Source of the DNA: Minutocellus sp. GHC0000111
Taxonomy: Eukaryota
Direction: 5' to 3'
Length of the DNA stretch: 64,000 nt
NCBI GenBank assembly: GCA_977018835.1
Contig: OZ361258.1
Coordinates: 1,736,001 to 1,800,000 of the forward strand
Every line of letters begins with the position of its first letter. The first letter of the stretch is position 1. A program made the translations under genes and the position numbers. A model generated the notes under the pieces. That model searched no databases and was not told the origin of the DNA. It saw only the letters and a program-made list of their open reading frames with translations. Shown one piece after another: positions 7,333 through 64,000 of the stretch.

Positions 7333-10300
7333 TTACTTGCCACCCTTCTTGAGCTTCTCCTGGAGTCGCTTGAGCTTCTCGGCTCTCTCGGCCGCGGTAA
7401 TATCAAGCTTCTCCTGGCGCTCGGCAGCATCCTTGTTGGCCCGCTCCTCCAGCTCGGTCAAGAGCGAATCCTTGTAATCGTCGAATCCTTCCACCCACTC
7501 GGTGCACCCTTGCTTCTCGACGACCCAAAGACCACAGTCGCAATTCTCGATGAGGCGTTGGTCATGCGTGACGACGACAATGCCGCCGTTGAATTCGTTC
7601 ATGGCGTCGATGAGAGCATCGATGGTCTCGATATCGAGGTTATTGGTAGGCTCATCGAGAAGCAGAACATGGTGGCGCTGGAGACTGAGATCTACAAAGA
7701 CAACACGAGCCTTTTGTCCACCACTGAGATCGCGCATGGTGACCTCGTGGGCGTGTCCTTCCAGGCCGTACTTGCCAAGACGGTTGCGGATGGATTGATA
7801 ATCCTGGTCCTGGTAGCGATCGCGAAGATGTTCCACAGGCGTCTTGTTCATCGGCAGCCGATCAACAAAGTGCTGATTGTAGATACCCATTCGAAGTCGA
7901 GGATTTCTGCGGACCTCGCCCTTGGTCGGCTCCACTTCTCCGGTCAGGAGCTTCAGAAGTGTACTCTTACCGGCACCATTGGGGCCGATGACGCAGATGC
8001 GGCTGTCCATATCAATACCGAAGTCGATGCGATCAAAGATGATGGGGTGCTTCTCAGAGTACCGGAAGTGGACGCGATTGACCTCCAAAACTGGGCGAGA
8101 CAGCTCGGCAACCTCGGCGAACTCCAACTTAACGGTGTACTCCTTGGGCCGTTTGATGAGCTCTTCTTGCTTGGCAGTGTCGGTACCGGCGGCGACGGCT
8201 TGGTTCTGCTTCTTCTTGGCGGCCCTGGCACCGGGCTCGCGCTTATTCTTCTTGACTTGCTCCGTAGCCTTGGCCTTGGACTGTCCCGATCGCTTCAACT
8301 CGCGAAGACGCTTCTCTTGCTTCTCCCATGCCTTTTGTTGCTGCTTGATCTTGGTCTTCTCAGCCTTCTTGAAACTGTCGTAGTTGCCCTTGTACGAAGC
8401 AAGCTTGCAATCTTCAATGTGAAGGATTTCCTGACACACCGAGTTGAGGAAATCTTGGTCATGCGATACGACAAGGAGCGTCTTCTTCCACTTTTCAAGG
8501 TAGGCATCCAGCCAGATCACAGCGTTCAGATCGAGATGGTTGGTCGGTTCGTCAAGCATCAAAAGAGTCGGCTCAATGAAGAGCGCCCGGGCCAGCGAGA
8601 TGCGCATTCTCCATCCACCGGAGAACTTCTTGGTGGGCTGAACCTGCATCTTTTCGTCGAAACCAAGACCATACAAAATCTTTCTCGCCTTGGCCTCGGC
8701 GGATGCGGCTCCAATCGCCTCGAGCTCATCGTACACGGCCTGCAAACGAGCGACCTTCTTGGGATTCTCATCGCCGGAATCAATGGCTTCCGTCAAGACC
8801 TTCTCCTCTTCGAGAAGATTCCATCGAACCTTGTCTGCCTTGAGGACGGCATCAACGGCGGGAGTATTGTCCGCGACAACCTCCTGCTCAACGTAGAGGA
8901 AATCGACGCGAGGGGGGAGAATGAGATCCTTGGAGGCAATCATTTTCAACAACGTGGATTTGCCTTTGCCGTTAGGGCCAACGAGACCATACCGACGTCC
9001 GTGAGCAATGTTGAATGCGGCGTCCTGAAACAGAACCTTTCCGGCGGCACTAATGTTGAAGGACGGGATGTTGATATCGAGAGAGTTCATCCACTGAGGA
9101 TCGTTCTCATTGACAGCCGTCTGAGAGCAGGCAAACTGGGCGCCCTCCGCTGACTGCTTGGAGGCGACCTTTTCATACTCGGCCATACGCTCTTGGGCGG
9201 CACGCTCCTTGAGAATGCGCTTGCGCTCCTTGAGAATGCGCTTGAGCTTTTTGCCATCCTTGCCGTAAATGAGCTGTGGGGGTAAAAGAGGGCGGAATGA
9301 AAATGCGATGCATGAGAAAAATGGATCAGGGATGCACATAATTGCATTTTCACAGGAAAAAATTGACAAGGCACAAAGAACTCACACTCATATCGGGACC
9401 CTCCTTGGCCTTCTCCTCGGCCTCCTTGTGGGCGTGACTCTTGTCGGTCCAGGCGTGATCATCGGGCGCACCGTACATGAGATCATCGTCGTCGTCCTCG
9501 CCGCCATCCCCTCCCTCCTTCTTGTCCTCACCGGCCTCCATAGCGGCCATCTTGGCGGCACGCTTGGCCTCTTTCTCGGCCTTGCGTCGTTTCTTCTCTT
9601 CCTTCTCGGCCTTTCGGCGAGCCTGCACGGTATTCATTGGATAGAACGAACAAATAAAAAAATAAAGTGAGACGGTAATACTTACAAGACATCAATGCAG
9701 TGGGAAGCAAACCATTGCCATGCATATCACCGGATAAAGACAAACATGATACAGCACGTCATGTAATACTCACTTTCTCGGCCTTTTTCTTGGCCTTTTC
9801 ATCCATCTCAGCATCATCGCCACCATCACCGCCGCTACCGTCGGCGGCGGCATCATCGTCATCACCCTCGGCATCCTTGAGCTTGGAGGCCTCCTCCATC
9901 TTCTTCTCGAGTTTGCTCTTCTTCTTATCCTTTTTCTTGTCCTTCTTCTTCTTCTTCTTCCCGCCGTCGTCGCTGCTGTCATCGTCCAGGGCCAGGGCAG
10001 CCATCTGATTGAACATACCACCCTTGTTGGACTCGGACTCGTCGTCGTCATCTTCGTCGGCTGCCTCTTCTTCCTCCGCTTCCGACTCAGAGTCATCAAA
10101 CATGGCAGCCTTCGCAGCAGCCTCCTTGGCCTCTCTCTCCTTTTGCTTCTTGAGCTGCTTCTTCGTGAGCTTCTTGACCGGTTGGGCAACTTCCTCCTCC
10201 TCCGACTCTTCGTCGGCCGAGGGCTCCGGCTCGGGTTCCGGCTCGGGTTCGTCCTCCTCCTCTTCGGACTCCGAGTCATCCAGCATAGCAGCAGCCTTGG

Positions 10301-10703: not shown

Positions 10704-10831
10704 GTTGTTGCTGCTTGAGTATCTCGGGTGTGTGAGTTACTGGGTGCGGTACCGGCACTTGACCTTGAAGACCGTACGATTGTTGTTGGGTGGCCAATGC
10801 ACGTGCTGGAAAATGGCGGCGCGCGGGAGAA

Positions 10832-10994
10832 CGTTGTGGGTACCGCACGGTGGGGATGAGCTGGCGACGGTGGTTAGCAGCAGGCACTAAAACTGCATTC
10901 CTGTAGTGCCCAGTTTTTCTGCTGACCACCACCTTCGCCTCCTCTCGTCTCAACTGACCAAGCCACAACCATCTGCGATTGCTGCCGTTGCAAT
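10832..10994 (+). repeat. Repeat A copy 1 (163 bp); further copies at 11390-11552 and 19303-19467
   Basis: Near-identical CGTTGTGGGTACCGCACGGTGGGGATGAGC...GCTGCCGTTGCAAT occurs three times. Confidence 0.95.
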
Positions 10995-11615
10995 CCAGGT
11001 CCAAGAATTTACATCCGGAGTCTCCACACGCATGATCCAACGAGGTTCCTTCTTCAACGTGCCCCACGCACACTCGACGAGCCATCGCGAAGACCCAAGG
11101 ACCCCAAATTGCCGCCAATCCTTCGCCGGCATCAACAGCATTGGCCGAAATGCCGGCTTCGGGACTCCAATGCCCCCCTTCGCCCTGTTCACCTAAGCAC
11201 GACACACATTATTGGCCGATCTGTGCTACGGAAAGGAGGAGGGGGAGAGGGACCTCACCCTCTAAGAAGTTTCATTTACCGCCAATGCCAGCTCCAGTTC
11301 ACGTAGTTAAACTGCATTTCATGTTCTACTAAGTTGTTGCATAGAGTTGGGAGAATCAGCGGAGGGAGGTGCTGTGTTCGATGTATCATCGTTGTGGGTA
11401 CCGCACGGTGGGGATGAGCTGGCGACGGTGGTTAGCAGCAGGCACTAAAACTGCATTCCTGTAGTGCCCAGTTTTTCTGCTGACCACCACCTTCGCCTCC
11501 TCTCGTCTCAACTGACCAAGCCACAACCATCTGCGATTGCTGCCGTTGCAATTGCTAAGTCAGCTTACAGCACCGGCTCCCAGAGCCTGTCTCTCTCTCT
11601 CTCAGTAGTTAGTTA
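10995..11615 (+). repeat. Left long direct repeat C-A-D (about 620 bp)
   Basis: Matches 18906-19532 from CCAGGTCCAAGAATTTAC to (CT)n CAGTAGTTAGTTA. Confidence 0.95.
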
Positions 11616-11659
11616 GTTTTAGCATATTAGGTTGGTGCTGCTCTACGAGTTCGTAATTA

Positions 11660-13219
11660 TTGGCCGACACACCACCACTGCTGTTAGTCCAGAGACCGCA
11701 GTCGACTCCGGAGTCAAACGGCCACGGCTCAGCTCCGTTGATAGTGCACGTAGATCCGATACCAGTCTCTACGACGGCAGAACAGTGCATGGCCGAACCA
11801 GATCGACCGGAACTGGATCACGTGTTGTTCGGAGTGGCAAGAGACCTCATCGTCCGAGGAGACTCTCCTGACCTTCCACGAGGCTGGGACAGACTCAGAC
11901 GTCAGATTCGGCCCGGGCGCAGAAGTTTCTTCACAGCCAGGGCGTCGTCCGAGAGACTGACCACAGACGCACTGGATTGGTGGAAAAGTTTTGCCGAGGG
12001 CCGAATCGACGTTACCGAGTGCCTCACCGATCTCGTCGAGCGCGCCACAGGCTACCTCCCATCGAGAGCCACGGGGTACCAGCCATCCCCAGCAGCAGCC
12101 GTTTCACACCTTACTCCAGTAGCGCACGGTCTGGTCGCCGAGTGCCTCGAGCAACAAGCCTTCTTGGTGTCACCGGACTGGCCCACGTACCTCGTCAACA
12201 TCTGGCTGATAGCCACGCGCCTTACCGAGCCTGAGATCCGCCGGGCACACGAGACGGCAACTGAGTTGGACCTGAGCAGTGCACTGTACCGACTACCACG
12301 GGCAGACGGAGGCGTCGTGGTTCAACAGTGTCGGGGGCGAAGGTGTCCGGAGGCATCGGTAGCAGCAGCGCGGCAACACCATTGCATCTGGCCCCAGCTC
12401 TGCCGGCTCACGCAGTGCATCCTCCACTACCAGGCCGACCGAAAAGAAAGACGGCGCATCGCGGCCAGAGAGGGCAGACCTCTAGAGCCGACACCGTACG
12501 CTTGCATAGGTTCACGGGGGAGCGAGCTTCCACCAACGCTGCCGCTCACTTATTTCGAGAGGGAGGTAAGGCCACTCTTCTACCCACGTGACGCACACGA
12601 CCGAACCGAGCGGGCTGGCGTCAGTGTGGCATTGGAGCGCGAGGAGATCTCATCGGCCCTTTCGCCCTGCCTGATCACCCAGTTCCCGCTGGATTCGCCG
12701 CACCCGTTCCAGAGACGGCAGTACCTACGACCGGACCAACTCACTGAAGCTATTATCAACTGGGACAGTGGATTCGAGAGCCTCACCAGCGCTCGACTCC
12801 GACACACTCGGCCTGACAGCAATCCTCTTGGACACCGAGTGGAGGTCAACCCGTACGAATGCTGGGGAAGGCTGGCAGACCTAACGGCGTCCCCCTCACA
12901 CCGCTGGGTAGGCACCTACCATCGAGTCTATCCGAGGTGGCTAGACGACACGGCCGATCCAAATCGCTGGGAGGGCACCGACTACCGCGTCTGGCCAAGA
13001 GCATCAATTCACCGGCGCCCCGACGATTTCGAGGCACCTATCCGCCTGCGAGATATCACCGCCGATATTTTGGTATCAGAGCCACCGCGTCAGGCATTCA
13101 ACATCCTTCTATCCACCTTTGGAGAGCCCGACATCGCCGACCGCATCCTCACCCTCACGGCCGATCTGAACCACATCCAGCGCCGAGAGGACCGACGCCG
13201 AAGGCGACAGGCAAGGTGA
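11660..13219 (+). CDS. Retrotransposon ORF1, unknown function
   Basis: 519-codon open frame (first ATG 11789) inside the element, directly upstream of the gag-like ORF. No recognised domain. Confidence 0.65.
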   Translation: MADTPPLLLVQRPQSTPESNGHGSAPLIVHVDPIPVSTTAEQCMAEPDRPELDHVLFGVARDLIVRGDSPDLPRGWDRLRRQIRPGRRSFFTARASSERLTTDALDWWKSFAEGRIDVTECLTDLVERATGYLPSRATGYQPSPAAAVSHLTPVAHGLVAECLEQQAFLVSPDWPTYLVNIWLIATRLTEPEIRRAHETATELDLSSALYRLPRADGGVVVQQCRGRRCPEASVAAARQHHCIWPQLCRLTQCILHYQADRKERRRIAAREGRPLEPTPYACIGSRGSELPPTLPLTYFEREVRPLFYPRDAHDRTERAGVSVALEREEISSALSPCLITQFPLDSPHPFQRRQYLRPDQLTEAIINWDSGFESLTSARLRHTRPDSNPLGHRVEVNPYECWGRLADLTASPSHRWVGTYHRVYPRWLDDTADPNRWEGTDYRVWPRASIHRRPDDFEAPIRLRDITADILVSEPPRQAFNILLSTFGEPDIADRILTLTADLNHIQRREDRRRRRQAR

Positions 13220-13235
13220 TCGAGCATTGATCACA

Positions 13236-15543
13236 ATGGCTTCATCTTTCAACACCTGGAAGTCAGTCCTGCTGGCACAAGAGATGCCGGCCGGGGCCGA
13301 CGCCGCCGTAGCTCGAGATTTCCAGAGATTCCTCGCCGACAACGTCTGTGAAACCGACCCCACGGCCGCTGTGGTCCAGAGCCATGCCCGAGCGATCCAG
13401 CAGCAAATCCGCGACGCCGAGGGTTTGTCCATGCTGGCCCACCATCCAGAAGGGAAAGTCGTGGTGATTCACCATGCCGTGGCTCAGGGAGGCACCACCA
13501 TGCAGCCCGACCTCAGGTTGGGTGGGCTCCTCGGGATCGACGATGTAGCCCCGGCAATGTCGTTGGCCCAACCTAGCCTCTTGCGGCACAAGGAGGTCCT
13601 AGCCCCATCGGTGGAAGCCATGCTGGGGGCACCGTCAGAAGCCGCCCTAACCGGTCTCACCCAGGAAGGCTCCAACACCCGCCACCGGAGTGCCTCCACG
13701 AAGTTTAAGTCCCTTGTGCCACTGCCACCTTCGATTCTGCAGAATGTTCTGGAAGAGCACGAGGCATCGCCTTGGGCCATCCTGTCCGCCATCAAACGTC
13801 GGCTGGATGAGGACGCCGGCAGCGACGACGCATCAGACAGCGGTGACGACGAGGGTCATGGCGCAGCAGGTCTTCGCTCCAATGAGGCTGTTCAACACGT
13901 CGTCAAGTGGCTGTGGTTCGTCGCCACGTCCGAGCAAGGTGACATCCCGGCCGTCAGCTTGTGCCCAACGACGGACCCGGCTCTCAAGACACACGCCCGT
14001 GAGATGCACGCTCGGCACATCACTGGCGCCAGTGGCGACGGACCACCAGCCGGTGGCGCCCCGACCGACTCTGCAGTTGCTGCCGCGGCCAACGCCATGA
14101 CTAGGGCCGCGTCCGAAGCATCCTCCCTCACCGGCGCAGTCATGGCCTACACTGACAAGGTCGACAAGAAGCACTCGATGAATGGCGCCATCCTCAAGGC
14201 CTGTGCCGCTTTCTGCCGGGTCTCGACCGAGCATGACGATGATGTAGCAGCGATCGACTCGAATCTTCCCGAAGGATTGAAAGCACTGCTGGAAGAGTCA
14301 AACCTCACGCAAGCAGCCGTCGGCCTCGAGCTGCATGTAAAGGGCAAGACCGGAGTCAGGACATCTCTCCAGGGCCTCACCACTTACGTCCGCCTCTTTG
14401 GCTTCGGGAAGAGCGACAAGAAAATCTACGATGGCTTCTCTGTCTTCGCCTTTAGCCCGGTAAACTCCAGCAGCAGCAATGCGCCCCTGTGCCTCTCCGC
14501 CTCTCAAAAGAAAGGACACACCTCGACTCAGGTGAAGGCTCTTCTGAAGCAGAACTACCGGTCCCCAACCGAGTGCGACGGTGCCAAACGTCACATCTCG
14601 GCCTTCGGCGCTGGCATTTCCTTCCTTGCCGGAGAGGATTCCGAGCCCGCTCGCTACGTCGCCAGGGTCCTCAGTCACATGAAGACACACGAGGACCAGT
14701 GCCGCGACATCGCCGAGAGCCATGGCGAGAAGTTCTGGCTGGCGATGTTCCACAACATCGACGCCTCCATCCATGCATTCTGGAAAGCTTGTCTCCGTTC
14801 CCCCCGACGACGCCGGCAACGACCTCTCTTGCTTCTCAATGGCCGACGAGTCCAAAAAGACAACGAAGACTCAGAATCCTTTCGTCTACCCCAGCCACAT
14901 CAAGCTCGTCCAATCGGCCGACGCTCCCACCCCTTCCTCGGATTCCGACTCCGACAAATCAGAGCCAAGAACCAGTCCGAAAAAGAAGCAAAAGACGGGC
15001 GGCGCCAGCGGCAGAGCCCACCAGTGCGAACACTTCGTCACGTTCAACATCAACCCCGGCAACTTTGCAAAACGGCATGGCAAGAAATCCGAGCCCTATG
15101 AGGACAGACCTGAAATTAATGGCTGTAAATTCTGCCCTCCATTCATCCTGATAGGTGTCTGCGGCGCCGGATCCTCGTGTAAGCTCAAGAAGTCGCATGT
15201 CAAGTTTCTCGGCCAGCCGGCCGAGCTCGTCCCTCCAAGCGCCGTCGAGTGCAGCCAGATGCGTCGGCGTCGATCCGCCCCGGTGGCTCCAGCCGCCCAA
15301 GGTTGTCCGGCACCCCAAAATCCGGCGTGTGCGGTCGCAACGACATCAGCAACCAATCCAGGCTCTCCGGTGCCCCTAACACCGGAGCAGAAGGCCGAGG
15401 CGTTAGCAGTGACCTTCGGTCGGGTCCTGGTCCCCCTAACACCAGCGGTGATGCCTGCGCCGACAACAGCATCTCAGGCTCTGGCTCCAGCACCACTAAC
15501 GCTGGCGGTGCGGAAGCCACCGACAACCTCTTCGACCGGCTAG
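13236..15543 (+). pseudogene. gag-like ORF with C-terminal CCCH-type zinc finger; frameshifted at about 14800
   Basis: Lies before RT. FCPPFILIGVCGAGSSCKLKKSH (C-x8-C-x5-C-x5-H) is in the shifted frame. The 3' end is approximate. Confidence 0.6.
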
Positions 15544-15756
15544 GCCAGCGAGAGAAGGATCTCCTAGGCAAGCAGCCCCAACCCGAAGCACAGTCTCCCC
15601 CTGGTTCCCCTACGCACAGCAAGGAAGCAGAACCGACACGCCAAAATGGTAAGTGAGACCAACAGGTGAAGAAACACCTACAACAAACGGGGCAGCCCAG
15701 CGCCCACAATGGGCCCACCACGGTCGGACAGACCCGCATGCTCGTGAACGTGCAGC

Positions 15757-18347
15757 ATGTGCATGTCTCACCTTTTTCTCGCCTCATGCAATTCCACGTG
15801 GGAACTAGAGCCCATCTTCGATGTTTCCACCTTGGTGCAGTGCGTCCGACGAGCAGTCGAGTCCCCGTCGGCCACACCGAAGCCCACGGAGTTCAGATTT
15901 GAGCTCTTGACGGAGGCCGCCGCTCACAATTGGTCGGTCCTCAAGAAACACGATCGTTCTCTGAGCAGGGCACTCGAGGCGCAGGGCGGGTCGCCACTCC
16001 AACCGGGATCGGAGTTCAGAGACCTGAGTCTTCTGGAGAGCCGATTCTTGGCCGGCACCCGCTGTGGCCCCGCTTCCGCTCCATTCTCGACAGTGGATCC
16101 GACTGGGCCCTCGATCCGGTGAGCGACGAAAGCAGACTGGACAGCGTGACAAAGAACATCGGCCGAGGCAACCACAAATCGGCCAGGGATAGGCCGGAGG
16201 TGCTCAAGGACCAAGTTCTCGACGACGTGACCCGCGGTTTCGCCCTCCCTCTGCCAGCAAAGGTCGCGCCCCTCATTCCTGGAGCGGAGGTGGCTCCGAT
16301 GGGTTTGGTAGCACAGAACACGATCAGCGAGGCTGGCGAGATCATGCCCAAGGACCGCCTGACTCACGACCAATCCTTCGAGATCGGTGCCGCACGGTCC
16401 GTCAACAACAGAGCACGCATGGAGGACCACCAGCCAGTGGTGTTCGGCCATGCCCTCCGGCGAGTGATCCACCACATCGTAGACGCCCGTCACAAGCATC
16501 CCCGCACTCCCATCCTCCTGCAGAAGGTCGATTTCAAGGCTGCGTGTCGCCGGGCCCACTTGGCTCCCAGCACGGCCGTCAAAACGATCACCACCCTGGA
16601 TGGCATTGCCCTCATGTCCCTCCGGCTGACTTTCGGCGGCCGCCCTTGCCCGAGCGAATGGTGCAATGTGTCCGAATCGGCGGCCGACCTGGCCAGGGCC
16701 CTCCTGCAATGCTCGGACTGGGACCCGTCAGAGCTCCACAGCCCCCAGCAGAAGCACTTGGGTCGCCCCAAGGTGGAGGGCGACTATGTGCCGTTCGCGC
16801 CGGCCCTGGACATGATCGCAACCCTTCCCGACAACAAGGATGGCATCGTCGAGCCGCACATCGATGACCTCATCGCCGCAGCCCCTGACCTGGGCGACAA
16901 CAAGGATCGGACATCCGCTGCCACCCTCCTCGCCATCCACGCGCTTGGCCGACCGGTGTCCGACAGCGAGCCACTGCCCAGAGATGACCTTGCCTCCATC
17001 AAGAAGCTGCTCGCCGACGGGACGCCTTCCGAAGCACTGTGTCTCTTGGGGTGGGATGCTGACACCCGGCGGCTCCTACTGAGGCTCCCTTGGAGCAAGC
17101 ACCTGGCCTGGCGCGATGACATGCTTCGGCTCCTCAGAGCCCGCGGCGCCACCAGATCAGAGCTGGACACCTTGGTCGGAAGGCTAAACCACGTCGGATG
17201 CATCATTCCAGCCGCACGACACTTCCTCAGCCGCCTTCGGGATCGGCTCTGGAAGGCCCGCCGCCACGGCCGCCAACGGTTCGACTCTGAGGATGCAGAA
17301 GACCTCAACCTATGGCTCCGCTTCCTCCGAAGGGCCGCCGATGGCATGAGCATGAACCTCCTCACGTGCCGTTGCCCCACCCACGAGCACACAAGTGACG
17401 CCTGCGAGCACGGCATCGGCGGATGGTCCTCATCCGGCAGAGCGTGGAGATTTGCCCTCCCCGAGGAGCTGTGGGGCCGGTTCACCCTCAATTACCTGGA
17501 ATTCCTCGCCGCCGTCATCGGCCCATGGATCGACCACATCGAGGGCAACCTGCCAACCCTCTCCTGCGTGCTGTCGGGGACCGACAGCACCACGGCCGAG
17601 GGATGGCTCAGGAAGTCGAACTTCGTGTCTCACGGCGAGAAGGATGCCGACGTAGCGGTCAAGCTGGCCACGGCGCGGAAACTAGCCGACACACTCATCG
17701 AGACCAACACCATGCTGCACTCACAGTGGTTCCAGGGGAAGCGCAATCCGGAGGCCGATTCTCTTTCTCGTGACACCGATCTCTCTGATGCTGACCTCAC
17801 GAAATTGCTTCTGTCATCTCCCGAATGTCAGCTTCCCTCAAATTTCAGGATTGCACCACTACCCAACGAGATTGCTTCCTGGATTGTCTCGCAGGCGCGG
17901 ACGCTGCCCGTCAGGAAGCAGTCACAACGGCCACTGCCGAGAAGCACGCTCTCGCGTGGAGCCGCTGGACTGAGTTCCTGCAGCTCATCGGGACCGGGGA
18001 CGACGTCTTCCTCGACAAGGTGTCACCCCGAGACCGAACAGTCATTCTCGGCGCCTTTGCCCACGCCGTCCGACAGGCCAGCTTTTCGGGGCCAAAGTTT
18101 TCGCGACTGGCTGCGTCGACAGTCCGAGATGCCGTCTCACATGCATGCTCGTCCTTCCGGCACAACCAGCGCAGGGACCCAGGGAAAGACGACATCGGCC
18201 AGCCTTCATTCCTTCTGCAGCGGCAGTTCCGAGGATGCAGCCAGTCCGACCCGGCCGAGCGGCCGGAGAAGGCGATCACCTGCCGGCTCCTCCGAGAGAT
18301 CGCCTCCGTCAGGGAAACGGAAGAGGACCGTGCAGTCGGGCAACTAG
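15757..18347 (+). pseudogene. Reverse transcriptase / RNase H of YR retrotransposon
   Basis: KDRLTHDQSF, KVDFKAACRR, LRLTFGGRPCPSEW, HIDD (for YIDD), LGW, and RNase H TSDAC..GIGG, NYLEF, TDSTTA, NPEADSLSR. Frameshift near 16040. Confidence 0.92.
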
Positions 18348-19109
18348 CCGTCGGCGCCTTCTTCTTCGCGATGAGGTCTTGCGAACACTCCAGAGTCAGC
18401 GGTGAGCGCAGGACCAAGCTGCTCCGCCTCCGCAACATCCAGTTCTACCGCGGCCGACGGCGCATGTGTCACAACGACCGGTCCCTCCTCTCAGCAGACT
18501 CTGTCTCCGTCGCCTTTGAGTTCCAGAAGAACGACGAGCGTGACGTCACGATTGCGCAACACTGCACCCACGACGCCACCCTCTGCCCAGTTCGAGCTTG
18601 GGCTGCCCTGGTGAAACGAGTCCTAGGGCACCCTAGCACCAACAGCGATACGCCGGTAAATGCCTTCGTGGTCAACGGCGCATTAAAATACATTCCTGCC
18701 ACCCGAATAGTTGACAAGATCCGAGCGTCGGCCACAGTGATTGGAGAGAGGACGTCCTGGGCTGCCATCCCTCTGAATTCGGATCACACTCCATTCATTC
18801 GCAGCGGGGAGCAGCAATGGCAATGTATCTAAATGATGTTCCCACGTACACAATCATGCTGGTAGGGCGGTGGTCCAGTGACGCCTTCCTCAAGCACATC
18901 CGTCGCCAGGTCCAAGAATTTACATCCGGAGTCTCCACACGCATGATCCAACGAGGTTCCTTCTTCAACGTGCCCCACGCACACTCGACGAGCCATCGCG
19001 AAGACCCAAGGACCCCAAATTGCCGCCAATCCTTCGCCGGCATCAACAGTGTTGGCCGAAATGCCGGCTTCGGGACTCCAATGCGCCCCCCTTCGCCCTG
19101 TTCACCTAA
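17825..19109 (+). pseudogene. Tyrosine recombinase, overlapping the RT/RH ORF; frameshifted, catalytic Tyr replaced by His
   Basis: FFFAMRSCE, FEFQKND, LCPVRAW, disrupted HSIRSG (about 18790-18810), IMLVGRWSSDAFLKHIR. Confidence 0.9.
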
Positions 19110-19532
19110 GCACGACACACATTATTGGCCGATCTGTGCTACGGAAAGGAGGAGGGGGAGAGGGACCTCACCCTCTAAGAAGTTTCATTTACCGCCAATG
19201 CCAGCTCCAGTTCACGTAGTTAAACTGCATTTCATGTTCTACTAAGTTGCATAGAGTTGGGAGAATCAGCGGAGGGAGGTGCTGTGTTCGATGCATCATC
19301 ATCGTTGTGGGGGCACCGCACGGTGGGGATGAGCTGGCGACGGTGGTTAGCAGCAGGCACTAAAACTGCATTCCTGTAGTGCCCAGTTTTTCTGCTGACC
19401 ACCACCTTCGCCTCCTCTCGTCTCAACTGACCAAGCCACAACCATCTGCGATTGCTGCCGTTGCAATTGCTAAAAGTCAGCTCACAGCACCGGCTCCCAG
19501 AGCCTGTCTCTCTCTCTCTCAGTAGTTAGTTA
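18906..19532 (+). repeat. Right long direct repeat C-A-D
   Basis: Copy of 10995-11615 with a few substitutions and slippage indels. Confidence 0.95.
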
Positions 19533-20053
19533 ATTTAAGGCGGTAAATGAAACTTCTTAGACGGGTTTGAGGGAATTTCTGCCGCCGCTGGCCCGACATG
19601 TCCGATAGGGTGGGTTGTTTGAGCACCGTGAAACAAAAGAATTCAGTGTGACTAGCTAGGAATTCCTACATGTAGGAGTGCCTCCTACTTGAGTTATAAT
19701 ACTGTAAGAAATTTATATAAGATTCTACCGGTATCACCGCCAGAGAGGGTGTATGCAGCAAACCGGAAAAAATGCAACTCATATGTATTGAAGATCTGAA
19801 TTCATCCTCCTTCCTTCTTCGTTCGATGTGCCAATGATCAGAATATACGAGTGTCTTGGTCCCACTCTAGTTATCTAAGGTGGCTCATGTTCGACACACC
19901 CGTGCTCTCATCGCCACGCGCATAAAGTAAATCAGTTCACATACATAAATCCAATGCAACAAGTTGCGTGCCCGGATCAGCTTGCATCTAAATCATCAAG
20001 ATCTGTCGATACTCCTCTATAGTGACTTCTACTCCACTTCTTCCGCTTTCAAA

Positions 20054-34800: not shown

Positions 34801-36989
34801 CGGTTGTGCCAAGTCAACCGGTGGTTCTCAGCTTTACAAGTGGAGAGACCAGCTCTACAAAAGCCTTGCTGATGGCATCAGCAATCCCATCGGCAGAAAG
34901 GAGGTTCGTGGAAGGAAGGAAGGCATGCACGGACATGATCGAGGAGAAGGAGCCAGGACATCTCCGCGAGCTGTGTCGGCATGCTGCTCGGATGAAGGGT
35001 GCGATGGCAACCTTTAAGGAGCTAGCTGACTGTATGAGCGCAAAATCAGCTACTCCAGATGAAGACAGGCTGACAATTAGTCTCCATCGTCTTCAGCTTT
35101 TTCGCTGGTGGAAAAAGCAAGGCGGTGAGGAGAAGTCGTCGATCGAGAAGCCGAGGCTCACCCCCGAACGTTGTAGGAAGCGACTTGATTGGATCGAAAA
35201 GTGGGAGGACATTGCGACCGATCCCAACATTCCTGTAGCGCATCTTGATGAAAAGTGGTTTTACACTGCTACTCGGCGACGAAAGCAAGATGTTGCCACT
35301 TTCTGAGGAAGAGCTAAGCAGTCCGAACCTCGCGTCTGTCCATGCTTCCGAGGCAAGCCCGAAAATTCGATCCAGAAGACACCCTGTCAAAGTTATGTGT
35401 CTTGGAGTTGTTGGCCGACCAATGAAGGATGAAACCAAAGACGTTGATTTCAATGGGCGCATCATGATCAAGAGAGTCGCCAGGGAGCAGAAGGTGGAAA
35501 AGCTTACGCGTAATCAGAATTTCTCTCCAGATGCTAAGGTCAACGATGCGCTAAAAAATGACAAAGATTGGCGCGACATTTACGACGAGAATGCTGACAT
35601 GACCGCCGGCCATCTTTGCGACCACATTGCCGAAATCTACGGCCTTTCTGAGTTTGTTACAGAGCGATTGGAACTTCAATACGAGGACTATAAATCCGAC
35701 GGTCAGGCAAAAAGTCGCAAGCATGCCGCTGTTGGCTACAATCAAAAGATCTCGAGTCTCAAGCGACACACTCCTGATAGCAATGTGGAGAGAAGGTGAA
35801 GGTTGAGATCGACGACCTTGAGCTCGGGGTGCGGCATCAACGGGGCGATAAGGTTACCAAGGACTGTAGCTGCGACTCCAAATGGATGTTGGAGACTATG
35901 AATGAGGTCGGGAAGGCGATTCGAGACGCACATCATTGGGTGAAGTGGGATCCACAAAATATTCAGGAGTCTGATGTTATGTGTCTTATGATGGACAATG
36001 CCGGCGGTCATGGGTCCAATGAAGCAGTTGAGAAGTACACCGAGGACCTCAAAAACAAATATAAGATTGAGACAATCCAGCAGGTTCCTCGGTCGCCCGA
36101 GACAAATGTTCTTGATCTCGGCATCTGGATGTCTTTGCAGTCGGCCGTCGAAAAGGAGCATCGCGGTCAGAAGAATGATGCGAATGCTCTTGACAAGACT
36201 GTGATGAAAGTATGGGCCAATGTCGCATCAAAAGAGGCCTTTCTCAATGTATTTGGAAAACTTCCAGTGATATATAACAACATCAAGAGAAGTCGTGGCG
36301 GTAACAATCTTGTGGAGACCAGACGGGGAAAGGCTGGTCTCGCAAAAATTGCCGAGGAAGAAGCTGAAGAGGATGGTGAACCACTCTGGCCAATTGATGC
36401 TCCCGGCGAAGATGATGACATTGAGGACGACATAGATGAAAATGATGAAGACGATGGAGTCATTGATTTGCTACAACTTATCATAGCATGTCCATTTCTA
36501 TTCATTACATTTTGATTTGGTGCTTCCAAAAATGTGCATTTTTTCCCGGGGTGAGGAATGCAAATGTCGAAAAAAATCATCACATAATGTACATTTATTG
36601 GTTCTGGTGCACAATATCTCTCGACTATATGTAGAAGTTGGTGACCATAACTTGGTTCTTGCCCCGACTTCCATCTTGGCCGTCATTTTTTCCTCGGAGT
36701 TAGTTAGAAAAAGTGAGCTTGGATTTTTGGTCTGGTGTGGTCGTGTTTCTAATGCGTCATCATCACGTCACTTTCAAATCCTCTGAACTCGAAATGTAGA
36801 TGGGGTTTCCGGGTAGATTGGTTACGAGCACAATCTGCACGGAAATGCTCCCGGCAGATGGGGGGCAAATCTGCGCAGATTTGGAACCGGGGGGAAAATC
36901 AGGGCAGATTTGGAACCGGGGGGAAAATCAGGGCAGATGGGGCGAAAAATCAGGGCAGATTTTTTTTCCGGGTAGATTGGTCACAACAC
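31878..36989 (+). mobile_element. Tc1/mariner (IS630-Tc1-mariner) DNA transposon, DD39D type, about 5.1 kb
   Basis: Terminal inverted repeats GTGTTGTGACCAATCT(G/A)CCC, subterminal AATCTGCCCTGATTTT / AATCTACCCGGAAA repeats at both ends, and an internal transposase. TSD not recognisable. Confidence 0.85.
33617..36515 (+). pseudogene. DD39D transposase, several frameshifts
   Basis: LDEKWFY, KVMCLGVVGRP, MDNAGGHG...SPETNVLDLG with 39 residues between the 2nd and 3rd Asp. The 5' start is approximate. Confidence 0.88.
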
Positions 36990-39289: not shown

Positions 39290-39375
39290 AAAAACCTAAC
39301 TGGGCAAAGGAGGCGCCGGCGCATTTGTTATACACCGGTTTCCGACTGACCTCAATCAGTGTCGTAGATCTAGTA

Positions 39376-39553
39376 CAGTCCGTCCCCGAAAATAAGCATA
39401 TCCATTCTGGAGCTGAGGTCTCAATATGCTTATTTTGGAATAAGGCATTTTAACACGAATGAGATACCAATTGCTTCTTAGAATAAGCAATAGGCCCAAA
39501 ATCTGAGGTCTCAAACAAGCATGTCAAATATGCTTATTTTCGGGGACGGACTG
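39376..39553. mobile_element. MITE (Tc1/mariner/pogo-type), 178 bp
   Basis: Perfect 26-bp TIR CAGTCCGTCCCCGAAAATAAGCATAT flanked by TA on both sides. Confidence 0.92.
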
Positions 39554-39865
39554 TAGATCTAGATCTCTAGGTCCAGTTCTAACTCGTAGTCTAGCATGTT
39601 TAGATTTTTGTGTTTTGCAGCTCTACTACATGTACTACGTAGTTCTTCTAGATATACTACACCTGCCTGCCTCTCCGTACGCAGCGTGATTATTGGTGAG
39701 TGGTTCGCATCGTGTGTGCGAACCCCGACCCGCAGGCGGAGATTCGATCACGCGTGCTGAATGAATCTCATGAAAGAAGCAAAAGCCAAATTCGGTGGGC
39801 ATGTTGCGCAATAAAAGAGATATATGCACTCCTGATAACAGAAGAGGGCATGCTTTACGACTAGC

Positions 39866-61805: not shown

Positions 61806-64000
61806 TTAGAAAATGGTTTGATTGTAATAGCACTCGTAGCGCGTAGCGTCAATGTCGTGGCGTTTCGATAGCAACTTTTGATATTCGAAGCATTCGCTGA
61901 GATAAAAATAGCTCACGGTCGCCTTCGAACCATCGGCACCGTTGCTGATGATGTCAAGCTGTCCGTCTCCGTTGACATCGGCGAGGACAAGATCGTTCTC
62001 ATCGAACAGAACGATTCCTTCAAAGACCAAATGATTGAGGAAGTTGGCCTTACCGTCGTTCTCAAAGAGGTAGGTGAGACTCAGTTCCTCGGACGTTGCC
62101 ACTATGTCAATGTCTCCGTCGCCGTTCATGTCGGCCGTTACGGCCACCACCACCTCGGGAATGCCGTCGAAGATGACCGTCTTTTCACCAAAGGTATAAT
62201 TGCCATACGGGGACGACGAGGAGGGCAATGGTGGGGGGATCTGTCGGTACCAGCTCACCGAGGCATCGTCGGATGTGGCGGTGACTAGGTCCAGGAGGCC
62301 ATCGCCATCTAGATCCGCCACCGTCACGTACTTGGCCTCCTCTAAGCCGGTAAGAAGCACGGAGTCCTGGTAGGTACCGTCAGGCAATTGTTGAAAAAGA
62401 AAGATGGAACCATCGTCGTCGGATGCGACCAAGGTATCGAGGAGGCCATCGCCATTGAAATCAACAATGTCCAAACCTTCCGGAGTTTGCGGAAGGTCGG
62501 AGATGGTGCTGCGTATAAAGGTGGGGTTAGGGGGTTGTGGCGAAGCAACCGCCGCGGCATCATCGGCTCCATCATCTGCGTCGGCGCTTGCGGTGTCCAC
62601 GCCATTGTTCTCGAACAGCAGGACAAGTCCCATATCTTCCACGACCACCACAATGTCGACCAATCCATCGGCGTTCATGTCGGCCGCACGGATTGATTCC
62701 ATATCGGGCAGCTCCGTGGCCAGGACCTGTCCCGTAAAGGTGATAGGAGAATTGGTATTGTCTTTGTTGTCACGGGGATTCTGCAGGTACAGGTAGAGCG
62801 TCCCCATCTCCTTCTCGCTGACCACCACGTCGGGCAGACCGTCGCCGTTGAAATCGGCCACGTCGACGGACCCGATTTCCAATTCCAGCGCCTCGTCCTC
62901 GAGGGGATGGACGACGTGTCTTCGTATTTCTGTCGTTGTCGTCGTATTTGTCGTTGTTGTTTCTTGTGTGTCATTATCTGCATTTGCTTCATCTCTCGGC
63001 AGGACGATAACCTGCTCCAGATATTCGACGCTGACGTGAGGCCAGTTGAGAGCGGCGATGACGTCAACCTTGGTCGAGTCGGCACCGCCAACGCCACCAC
63101 CGCCGCCGATAACGGTGGCCAGCGCCGCACTGGACAGGTCGTCCCCGACCAGCACATTTTGTTGGACGCATCCTGGGAACAAGTCTGGCTGGGCCTGGAC
63201 TCCGCCGTTGGTACTAGTGTTGCCATTGGCATTGCCATCTGCTCCCACGGTCGCTTCACTTGCACCATTACTGCCACCGCCATCAGTGCTGCCCCTCGCC
63301 GTGACCGCGACGGCCGTGGCAATGGCCACCACGGCCACGACGAAAACGACCACCGCACCCCCCAGCACCATCCTCCGCTTGCTGGCCCGATGCCGATCGT
63401 CGAGCTCTCGCTTCGTCTCCTCCTTGGCCTGATCGACCAGCCGCTGCTCGTGCCGGGCGATGGCATCGGAGTCCATGACGACGACATCGGATGCCGTATT
63501 CGTACCGCTGGCAAGGGTCGGGGCCGTCGTGGCGTGGGCGGATTCGGACCCGACCGACGGCGGCTGCGGTCATCGTTTCGGCCTCGCCTGCGCCTGCGGC
63601 TTCTGCCTCTGCGACCATCTGATGGTCATCCATATCAAAATCAACGTCGTCGTTTACCTCGCTGGCGATCGGTACCGCCACCGCGTCGGTGATGACGGCC
63701 TCGTGCTCATGGTGCTCTACGGACGGCTGCTGGTGGCTACTCATGCTGCTGCCATGACGTTCATGCCTCGAACCTCCTCCAGCTCCTCCACCGCCAACTC
63801 CGGCCGCCTCGACGACGGCACCGGACGAGGCGGCGGACGACAGGCCGTCCAGGGGGGTGGGGAAGACGCGGAACGCGCCCGGCTGCGATTGCGATCGGGA
63901 GGATGCGGCAGACGCGGACGCGGACGCGGACGCCGAAGCTGGAGGATTGGGAGTGGGAGGGATCTCCTCCGTGTCCTCCTTGCGACTGCCGCCACCAATA
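61806..64000 (-). CDS. Single-pass membrane protein with FG-GAP/VCBS repeats; 5' end beyond window; frameshift at about 63553
   Basis: Six DxNGDGxxD-type repeats after a TM helix. The upstream frame (QPGAFRV...MSSHQQ) stays open to 64000. Confidence 0.82.

Follow-up and report, generated by a model that had tools for sequence, protein, structure and literature searches.

Which TA dinucleotides survive in a stretch of DNA that has lost most of them, and what do their flanks say about the process that removed the others? The question is raised by a tract at 16381–18640 of a 64,000-nucleotide window (the whole stretch analyzed here; contig OZ361258.1, positions 1,736,001–1,800,000) from Minutocellus sp. 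GHC0000111. The tract sits in a DIRS-order tyrosine-recombinase retrotransposon of a diatom. The original prediction, made from the sequence alone, held that the TAs remaining in this tract are almost all CTA or its complement TAG and that an enzyme-like mutator prefers TA neither preceded by C nor followed by G. Our results show that an enzyme-like flank bias is real, but that the contexts emptied of TA are those with a purine before and a pyrimidine after the dinucleotide (R-TA-Y).

Flanking bases of lost and retained TA sites

An exact recount of the tract gave 13 TAs, 12 of which lie in CTA or TAG, the exception being the predicted TTAC at 17493. The sites, and the region without R-TA-Y to which they belong, are as follows.

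16381–18640: tract of the original prediction; 13 TA, comprising 6 YTAY, 2 RTAR, 5 YTAR, and 0 RTAY
16480–17311: remaining TAs 16480 GTAG, 16785 CTAT, 17077 CTAC, 17185 CTAA, 17311 CTAT
17493–17860: remaining TAs 17493 TTAC, 17653 GTAG, 17683 CTAG, 17860 CTAC
18345–18634: remaining TAs 18345 CTAG, 18446 CTAC, 18624 CTAG, 18634 CTAG
13075–18648, strand not applicable: tract without any R-TA-Y, the core of the hypermutated element, defined by the RTAY gap and TA counts

TA stands at 0.12–0.20 of expectation in 16001–18000. Base composition gives an expected CTA/TAG share of 0.53, so that 12 of 13 has a binomial p of 0.0035, for a tract and a pattern that were both picked post hoc; in the wider body of the element (13220–18905) the share is only 41 of 56 TAs. 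The absence of R-TA-Y is a sharper description of the tract. None of the 47 TAs in 13220–18640 is RTAY, against 25% expected (p 1.4e-6), and in the flanking host DNA RTAY makes up 33–37% of TA. The gap free of RTAY (13074–18649) spans 5,575 bp and falls inside the element in its TA-depleted region, as seen for one element in one window; the next longest gap among the 621 RTAY sites of the window measures 853 bp. ORF1, at the 5' end of the element, had been described as rich in GTAC and TTAC, and indeed its region (11650–13219) holds 41 TAs, including 6 GTAC, 5 TTAC/GTAA, and 10 RTAY.

Context rates were obtained from sister copies of the element, read as proteins. At least 94 family proteins were collected through protein searches and cluster lists (15 of 31 and 15 of 57 cluster members listed), and 82 were analyzed after exclusion of 3 from the window itself, 2 from short contigs, which served as near-intact references, and 7 minus-strand frames. 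Most of the sister proteins likely derive from the window's own assembly. Ancestral TA sites were scored as TA, TG, or CA through codons that vary among Tyr, Cys, and His or among Ile, Met, and Thr, at a depth of 4–42 copies per site. The pol copies contain 0–0.8% Tyr, compared with about 1–3% in relatives (among the matches listed). Tyr is retained at all 10 covered sites in the near-intact relative P0300 and at 5 of 6 in P0320, indicating that TA is the ancestral state. Both lie on short contigs (2.0 and 1.0 kb) and are nearly unmutated; intact source copies may therefore persist in some population.

At the 38 R-TA-Y sites, 19 of 610 observations still had TA, the others being 304 TG and 287 CA. 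Y-TA-Y and R-TA-R, which are one class viewed from either strand, kept TA in 114 of 219 observations at 16 sites; the changes comprised 80 on the YTAY and 25 on the RTAR strand. Compared site by site, retention differed from that at RTAY with a Mann-Whitney p of 1e-7. At the 13 Y-TA-R sites, each of which has one strand visible, we noticed 2 changes in 173 observations. The same ranking held for individual 4-mers: TA was kept at GTAC in 8 of 251, at ATAC/GTAT in 10 of 264, and at ATAT in 1 of 95 observations, and at ATAA/TTAT in 23 of 60, GTAA/TTAC in 19 of 37, ATAG/CTAT in 12 of 21, and CTAC/GTAG in 60 of 101.

A per-strand fit, with positions counted from the target A, assigned a factor of 0.27 (0.18–0.36) to a pyrimidine at -2 and of 0.085 (0.05–0.12) to a purine at +1. 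For single bases, the factors were 0.235 for C and 0.335 for T at -2, and 0.111 for A and 0.066 for G at +1, the A followed by G being the most protected class. The purine/pyrimidine model had an Akaike information criterion (AIC) of 1399, compared with 1533 for a C/G rule and 1677 for no context, and was best in 96.5% of 200 site bootstraps. Rates thus differ among NTAN contexts, as the original prediction had proposed to check, and this spectrum, taken here from sister proteins, bears out context dependence; the C/G-only motif is rejected on its poorer fit, as TTAC/GTAA and ATAA/TTAT are also spared. The prevalence of C and G among the survivors here reflects a coding tract with 63% GC. They also give the strongest protection, so the original prediction had caught a true part of the rule, T and A shielding nearly as well. 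Since TTA and TAA are protected too, the TTAC at 17493 is no exception but conforms to the rule.

A set of 46 RTAY sites, one of them a TTAC (18553), was used for the +2 base and for the strand-run and copy-agreement analyses below. The +2 base sways the direction of change at RTAY (relative to C, A 0.41, G 0.74, and T 1.34; p 0.003 by site permutation). Within this set, there was no effect of C versus T at +1 (p 0.80) or of the +3 base (p 0.32). Taken over all positions, the target A is preferred with T >> A > C >> G at -1, a purine at -2, a pyrimidine at +1, and T > C > G > A at +2.

Outside TA, A>G changes reached at most 3.5% of the targets: 33 of 954 at RAAY, 19 of 1138 at RCAY, and 3 of 1964 at RGAY, with 3 of 604 at YAAY, 6 of 2378 at YCAY, and 2 of 1524 at RAAR. 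These minor targets follow the same flanks, indicating a preference for a purine at -2 and a pyrimidine at +1 on the mutated strand whatever the -1 base, and, because RAAY is not palindromic, a rule that acts strand-wise. A TA accordingly survives only if both of its adenines lie in poor contexts, which leaves YTAR nearly immune, YTAY/RTAR half kept, and RTAY erased.

Type, independence, and distribution of the changes

The changes are almost purely transitions, and at RTAY they fall equally on both strands. The 41 ancestral Tyr codons are now His in 249, Cys in 242, Tyr in 100, Phe in 1, Gln in 1, and Arg in 0 observations, so that the A of Tyr codons shows 491 transitions and 1 transversion; the double change of TA to CG was not seen in the sister copies. 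Background C>T amounts to 76 of 28,709 (0.26%), with 41 of 8,899 at CpG and a rho(CG) of 0.92. This low C>T level suggests that the copies are young, yet 97% of RTAY is erased, with k of about 1.9 per strand at RTAY compared with 0.0026 for C>T. As hypermutation occurs here without CpG loss, it is separable from 5-methylcytosine decay.

Copies agree at 0.574 of shared sites, compared with 0.580 by permutation. Neighboring changes within 30 bp are on the same strand in 107 of 211 cases (0.507, against 0.476 by permutation; p 0.15), and processive same-strand runs are therefore rejected. The largely independent outcome from copy to copy, together with the lack of strand runs, fits many independent single hits on both strands.

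The changes were also examined in DNA. Logan contigs of four runs were aligned to 15800–18900, giving 43 variant rows, 40 of them listed, and 35 of the 40 fall at TA-type sites. Within 16100–18640, all 10 listed RTAY sites show only the swap between TG and CA, and all 9 other listed sites retain a TA allele, the change being on the YTAY strand at 8 of them. Many of the sites visible in the proteins are missing from the list, which is thus a check rather than a census. Because the same swaps appear in short-read contigs, a sequencing artifact is rejected. At 17077 and 17311, most copies have CTG. At 16785, the TA results from a private G>T change: G is found in all four runs, Asp in 39 of 40 proteins, and the sole Tyr at this codon is that of the window's own copy. 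This TA is new and, contrary to the original prediction, not a survivor. Element sequences were further found in nine RNA libraries (X6, X7, X9–X14, and X16), and some of the runs with the element are labelled sponge metagenome. The X11 library shows TG and CA alleles, so mutated copies may be transcribed, or DNA may be present in the library.

Related elements in metagenomes served as controls. A pattern scan with the window's pol gave no relatives among 150 matches, and an alignment scan found related elements at 80 of 320 distant loci. Their rho(TA) is 0.37–0.80, compared with 0.14 in the window, and their CTA/TAG ratio is 1.03 ± 0.17, compared with 1.70. None of the 80 is free of RTAY (share 0.15–0.41, median 0.26), and the strongest RTAY depletion in their 1,172 sub-windows has an uncorrected p of 5e-4. 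As these controls lack the signature, the pattern does not come from the codon use of the gene family. Metagenome contigs may be collapsed majority sequences, so absence in other diatoms is not implied. One related element (L077:1-3821) combines a low rho(CpG) of 0.37 with the lowest RTAY share (16 of 105), possibly a partial signature, which is non-significant after correction.

Mutation load varies along the element. RTAY was kept in 2 of 140 observations in ORF2, 8 of 411 in pol, 1 of 33 in 18140–18467, and 8 of 26 in 18629–18895. The ORF1 part (11640–13100) is far less mutated than the rest, and the 3' end and terminal repeats are intermediate. For ORF1, 14 of 19 listed rows in contigs of four runs are at TA-type sites, and most of these retain TA.

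The retrotransposon and its surroundings

The element measures about 8.7 kb and is bounded by direct terminal repeats. Its parts are listed below.

10835–10994, plus strand: extra partial copy (96%) of the repeat segment 11393–11558, at the left edge
10995–11630, plus strand: left terminal direct repeat, about 630 bp, which includes the recombinase frame's 3' end in copy
11789–13219, plus strand: ORF1, 476 amino acids, without Pfam match; far fewer mutations, likewise in sister copies
13236–15204, plus strand: ORF2, likely gag-like; sister proteins switch frame near 14804 relative to the window copy
15757–18347, plus strand: pol, reverse transcriptase and RNase H; the window copy has a 2-bp frameshift at 16036
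17825–19245, plus strand: tyrosine recombinase frame overlapping pol, disrupted by small insertions near 18744–18806
18906–19540, plus strand: right terminal direct repeat, with 4 TA-site differences from the left repeat
19539–19564, minus strand: 26-bp inverted copy of 19171–19196 (and 11258–11283), at the right edge

Pfam and PDB sequence searches with the frames of the element gave no match; one relative of ORF2, 46% identical, has a CCCH zinc finger in Pfam. The assignment of pol was drawn from relatives. A structure predicted for P0013 (56% identical), with a pLDDT of 84, gave matches to reverse transcriptases of retroviruses and Ty3 (E value 2e-10), and in an alignment of 50 relatives the KxDxKxAYRR, LRLTFGG, YxDD, and RNase H motifs are conserved. 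The overlapping frame has an Atlas score of 0.98 to clusters including Phage_integrase (34% of the members of one cluster), and the recombinase motifs RxxEY, HSxRxG, and GRWxSxxFxxYI occur in 58, 42, and 48 of 63 matches from the 80 loci. In the window copy, the conserved tyrosines of AYRR, YxDD, YxD, and YSQW in pol are now Cys, His, His, and His, and those of RxxEY and FLKYIR in the recombinase frame are now His.

Between the left and right terminal repeats, 4 TA sites differ (3 RTAY and 1 YTAY), and 16 TAs are intact in both, none of them RTAY. The ends (10835–11630 and 18906–19564) are unusual in that the repeat includes the recombinase 3' end, a 166-bp piece occurs in three copies, and the right end terminates in an inverted segment of 26 bp, the last resembling the complementary region of tyrosine-recombinase retroelements. 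These odd ends may stem from insertion of a permuted circular intermediate. Ngaro elements have repeats ordered A1-pol-B1-A2-B2 and no methyltransferase (PMC3783388). Our element shares with DIRS and Ngaro the reverse transcriptase-RNase H frame and the overlapping recombinase frame between terminal repeats. It differs in its long direct repeats that include the recombinase 3' end and in its short inverted segment. Unlike strict DIRS, with inverted terminal repeats, it has direct repeats and an inverted segment of 26 bp only. With respect to Ngaro, to which it may belong, direct terminal repeats are present and no clean B1/B2 pair was seen. No Dam match was found, but Pfam missed the reverse transcriptase as well. 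Neither scheme fits cleanly.

The element lies upstream of a minus-strand host gene, some 130 bp from its start (near 10705, continuing into an ABC-F type frame at 7333–9381). The proximity of an active gene might account for the low load of the 5' part, but sister copies are spared there as well. For a neighboring phosphoacetylglucosamine mutase, the best named relatives are from Odontella (58%), Thalassiosira (54–56%), and Skeletonema; all three are diatoms, which marks the host as a diatom. Elsewhere in the window, a small element at 39374–39555 has perfect 28-bp terminal inverted repeats and short TA-containing palindromic flanking duplications, resembling a miniature inverted-repeat transposable element of Tc1/mariner type; AT-rich and retaining many TAs, RTAY included, it seems to have escaped the mutator. 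A short tandem array of 29-bp units in 3–4 copies occupies 36860–36962. On the minus strand, 61806–63569 encodes a 587-amino acid frame with FG-GAP repeats (Pfam FG-GAP_3), for which a TcdB_toxin_midN match failed per stretch. A GC-rich open frame without Pfam match at 1–1000 has 5 TAs, 0 RTAY, and a rho of 0.13, too few sites to call.

Origin of the changes and relation to known systems

We consider the mutator to be probably a host deaminase that would act on the DNA of integrated copies, changing A to G on either strand and fastest in R-T-A-Y. This reading is based on the pure transitions, the motif graded from -2 to +2, the equal strands, and the divergence of terminal repeats after insertion. 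Such an adenine deaminase would convert A to inosine in DNA; it would act after integration, in repeated single hits on resident copies, and would presumably be targeted to silenced repeats. A role in defense is suggested by the loss, in almost all copies, of four conserved pol tyrosines located in RTAY.

Several points weigh against a deaminase acting in this way. At -1, AA ranks above CA, which is unlike evolved TadA and nearer to the WA motif of Pol eta. Tyr to Arg was seen in 0 of 593 observations although RCAY is a minor target, where we estimate that about 2–9 would be expected. The RAAY changes show a twofold bias toward the minus strand (26 of 623 compared with 7 of 331). The copies are not fully independent, as 12 of 553 pairs agree at 90% or more, compared with 5.6 expected, and the load along the element is uneven, with the same shape in sister copies. 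In addition, the context rates come from proteins and not from the DNA of single copies, the informative sites were chosen by eye among polymorphic codons, and the cluster lists cover 15 of 31 and 15 of 57 members.

That there is no context preference at all is highly improbable. CTA/TAG would then have been regenerated by C>T at CAG/CTG, or kept by selection or chance; with 63% GC, CTA/TAG is indeed the commonest class expected (0.53), CTG is found in most copies at 17077 and 17311, and 1 of the 13 TAs (16785) is new. However, the CTAC/CTAT and TTAC survivors include ancestral tyrosines common to near-intact and distant relatives, the same sites show the three states TA, TG, and CA, and C>T is rare (0.26%), so regeneration is rejected; retention by selection is rejected because the conserved catalytic tyrosines are lost, which indicates that selection is absent. 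All 80 metagenome relatives, with a rho(TA) of 0.37–0.80 against 0.14, lack a CTA/TAG excess. An adenine methyltransferase with an RTAY-like site, whose N6-methyladenine would then be deaminated or miscoded to G in a manner resembling repeat-induced point mutation (RIP), is also improbable, if less so. Palindromic 4-mers are typical of methyltransferase sites, the erased class is such a 4-mer, and pure transitions are compatible with this route, yet the same flanks govern the non-palindromic RAAY and the preference is graded out to +2.

We regard as equally improbable that the changes arise during retrotransposition, through A-to-I editing of RNA giving TG and deamination of single-stranded cDNA giving CA, so that copies are born mutated. 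DIRS elements do pass through single-stranded cDNA (PMC7192593), the copies are independent, the load profile is alike in sister copies, and a double CG outcome is absent. However, a 50:50 outcome with 3% left would need a second step about 4 times stronger than the first, and the unsaturated classes show no consistent excess of that kind: YTAY changed in 51 of 146 (top) and 29 of 73 (bottom), RTAR in 14 of 73 (top) and 11 of 146 (bottom), RCAY in 1.6% versus 1.9%, and RAAY in 2.1% versus 4.2%. Moreover, within one copy the terminal repeats are not alike at TA sites, and the comparable spectrum in Bigelowiella accumulates in resident, silent DNA (bioRxiv 10.64898/2026.01.13.699255). Somewhat less remote, though still unlikely, is an error-prone polymerase, Pol eta-like with a WA motif, that resynthesizes patches of silenced repeats and misinserts opposite T, making TA the main and AA the second target. 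Both strands are affected, AA is the second-best 5' context (RAAY 3.5%, RCAY 1.7%, and RGAY 0.15%), and somatic hypermutation has its A/T hotspot at WA (PMC6423074). Yet A/T hypermutation includes transversions (PMC6423074), compared with 491 transitions to 1 transversion here; RTAY changes about 50 times faster than RAAY (k of about 1.9 versus 0.035), so that AA, as second target of the WA signature, lies about 50-fold below TA; and patch synthesis should cluster same-strand changes, which was not observed within 30 bp (p 0.15).

A comparable process is RIP, in which ascomycetes change C to T at CpA and gain TpA, in strand-coordinated rounds. RIP is tied to a cytosine methyltransferase-like protein and needs RID/DIM-2, repeat pairing, and a premeiotic stage. 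Both processes are dinucleotide-specific transition hypermutation restricted to a destroyed repeat, with context-dependent survivors, but the polarity here is opposite: TA changes to TG or CA at A:T pairs, TpA is lost, C>T is rare (76 of 28,709), and same-strand runs are absent. Among adenine deaminases, wild-type TadA acts on tRNA, and its DNA-active forms are engineered. TadA recognizes a UACG motif and evolved TadA YA (PMC10586758), and the base editor ABE3.1 recognizes YAC (PMC12703980). T at -1 and C at +1 are thus favored in both systems, but here T equals C at +1, G is unfavored at +2, AA exceeds CA, and a purine is preferred at -2. ADAR prefers U and A over C and G as 5' neighbor, which matches our order of T >> A > C >> G, and favors a 3' G (PMC11276115), which is the most protected base here (0.066). 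RNA editing of ADAR type, which had been disfavored at the outset from the survival of TAG, is therefore not supported despite the matching 5' order: the 3' base disagrees with the preferred UAG, the strands are equal (304 TG versus 287 CA) where editing would touch the transcript strand alone, and the changes are fixed in DNA.

The system most similar to ours was described by Mettrop et al. in Bigelowiella natans, where integrated giant-virus and virophage DNA undergoes A>G hypermutation at TpA only (bioRxiv 10.64898/2026.01.13.699255). De novo changes, 231 in number, arise in nuclear DNA, in some lines only, at a rate about 1000-fold above background; reverse transcriptase genes are TpA-poor, and an ADAT-like deaminase was proposed, with an ADAT2/3-like candidate (same preprint). 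Both systems have A>G/T>C changes only, at TpA, on both strands, in foreign or mobile nuclear DNA. They differ in that ours is found in a diatom (a stramenopile), in a multi-copy retrotransposon, and near saturation. The main text of the preprint gives the dinucleotide only, although flanks may be in its supplements, and here the -2, +1, and +2 bases and the AA and CA targets are resolved. In the accessible literature, TpA hypermutation is published for Bigelowiella only, in this one preprint and without a flank rule; our searches, with subscription papers mostly outside their reach, found no TpA hypermutation in a diatom and no RTAY motif.

The measured motif provides a yardstick for candidate enzymes, as a deaminase or polymerase proposed as the mutator has to yield it, and the mutations listed for Bigelowiella can be compared with it. 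The share of RTAY among TA is a simple index with which to find the process in other genomes. Annotation calls for caution, as motif searches miss such elements where Tyr has given way to His or Cys. A natural DNA adenine editor, if this is one, would be relevant to genome engineers, whose editors were evolved from a tRNA enzyme. Tentatively, and as a possibility somewhat less secure than the deaminase itself, diatoms may possess a DNA adenine deaminase of natural origin that is directed at repeats, has an R-T-A-Y(-Y) motif, and erases transposons without relying on CpG decay. Such an enzyme could mirror RIP on adenine, either shared with the Bigelowiella system or convergent to it, and would be the first natural genomic adenine base editor in genome defense.

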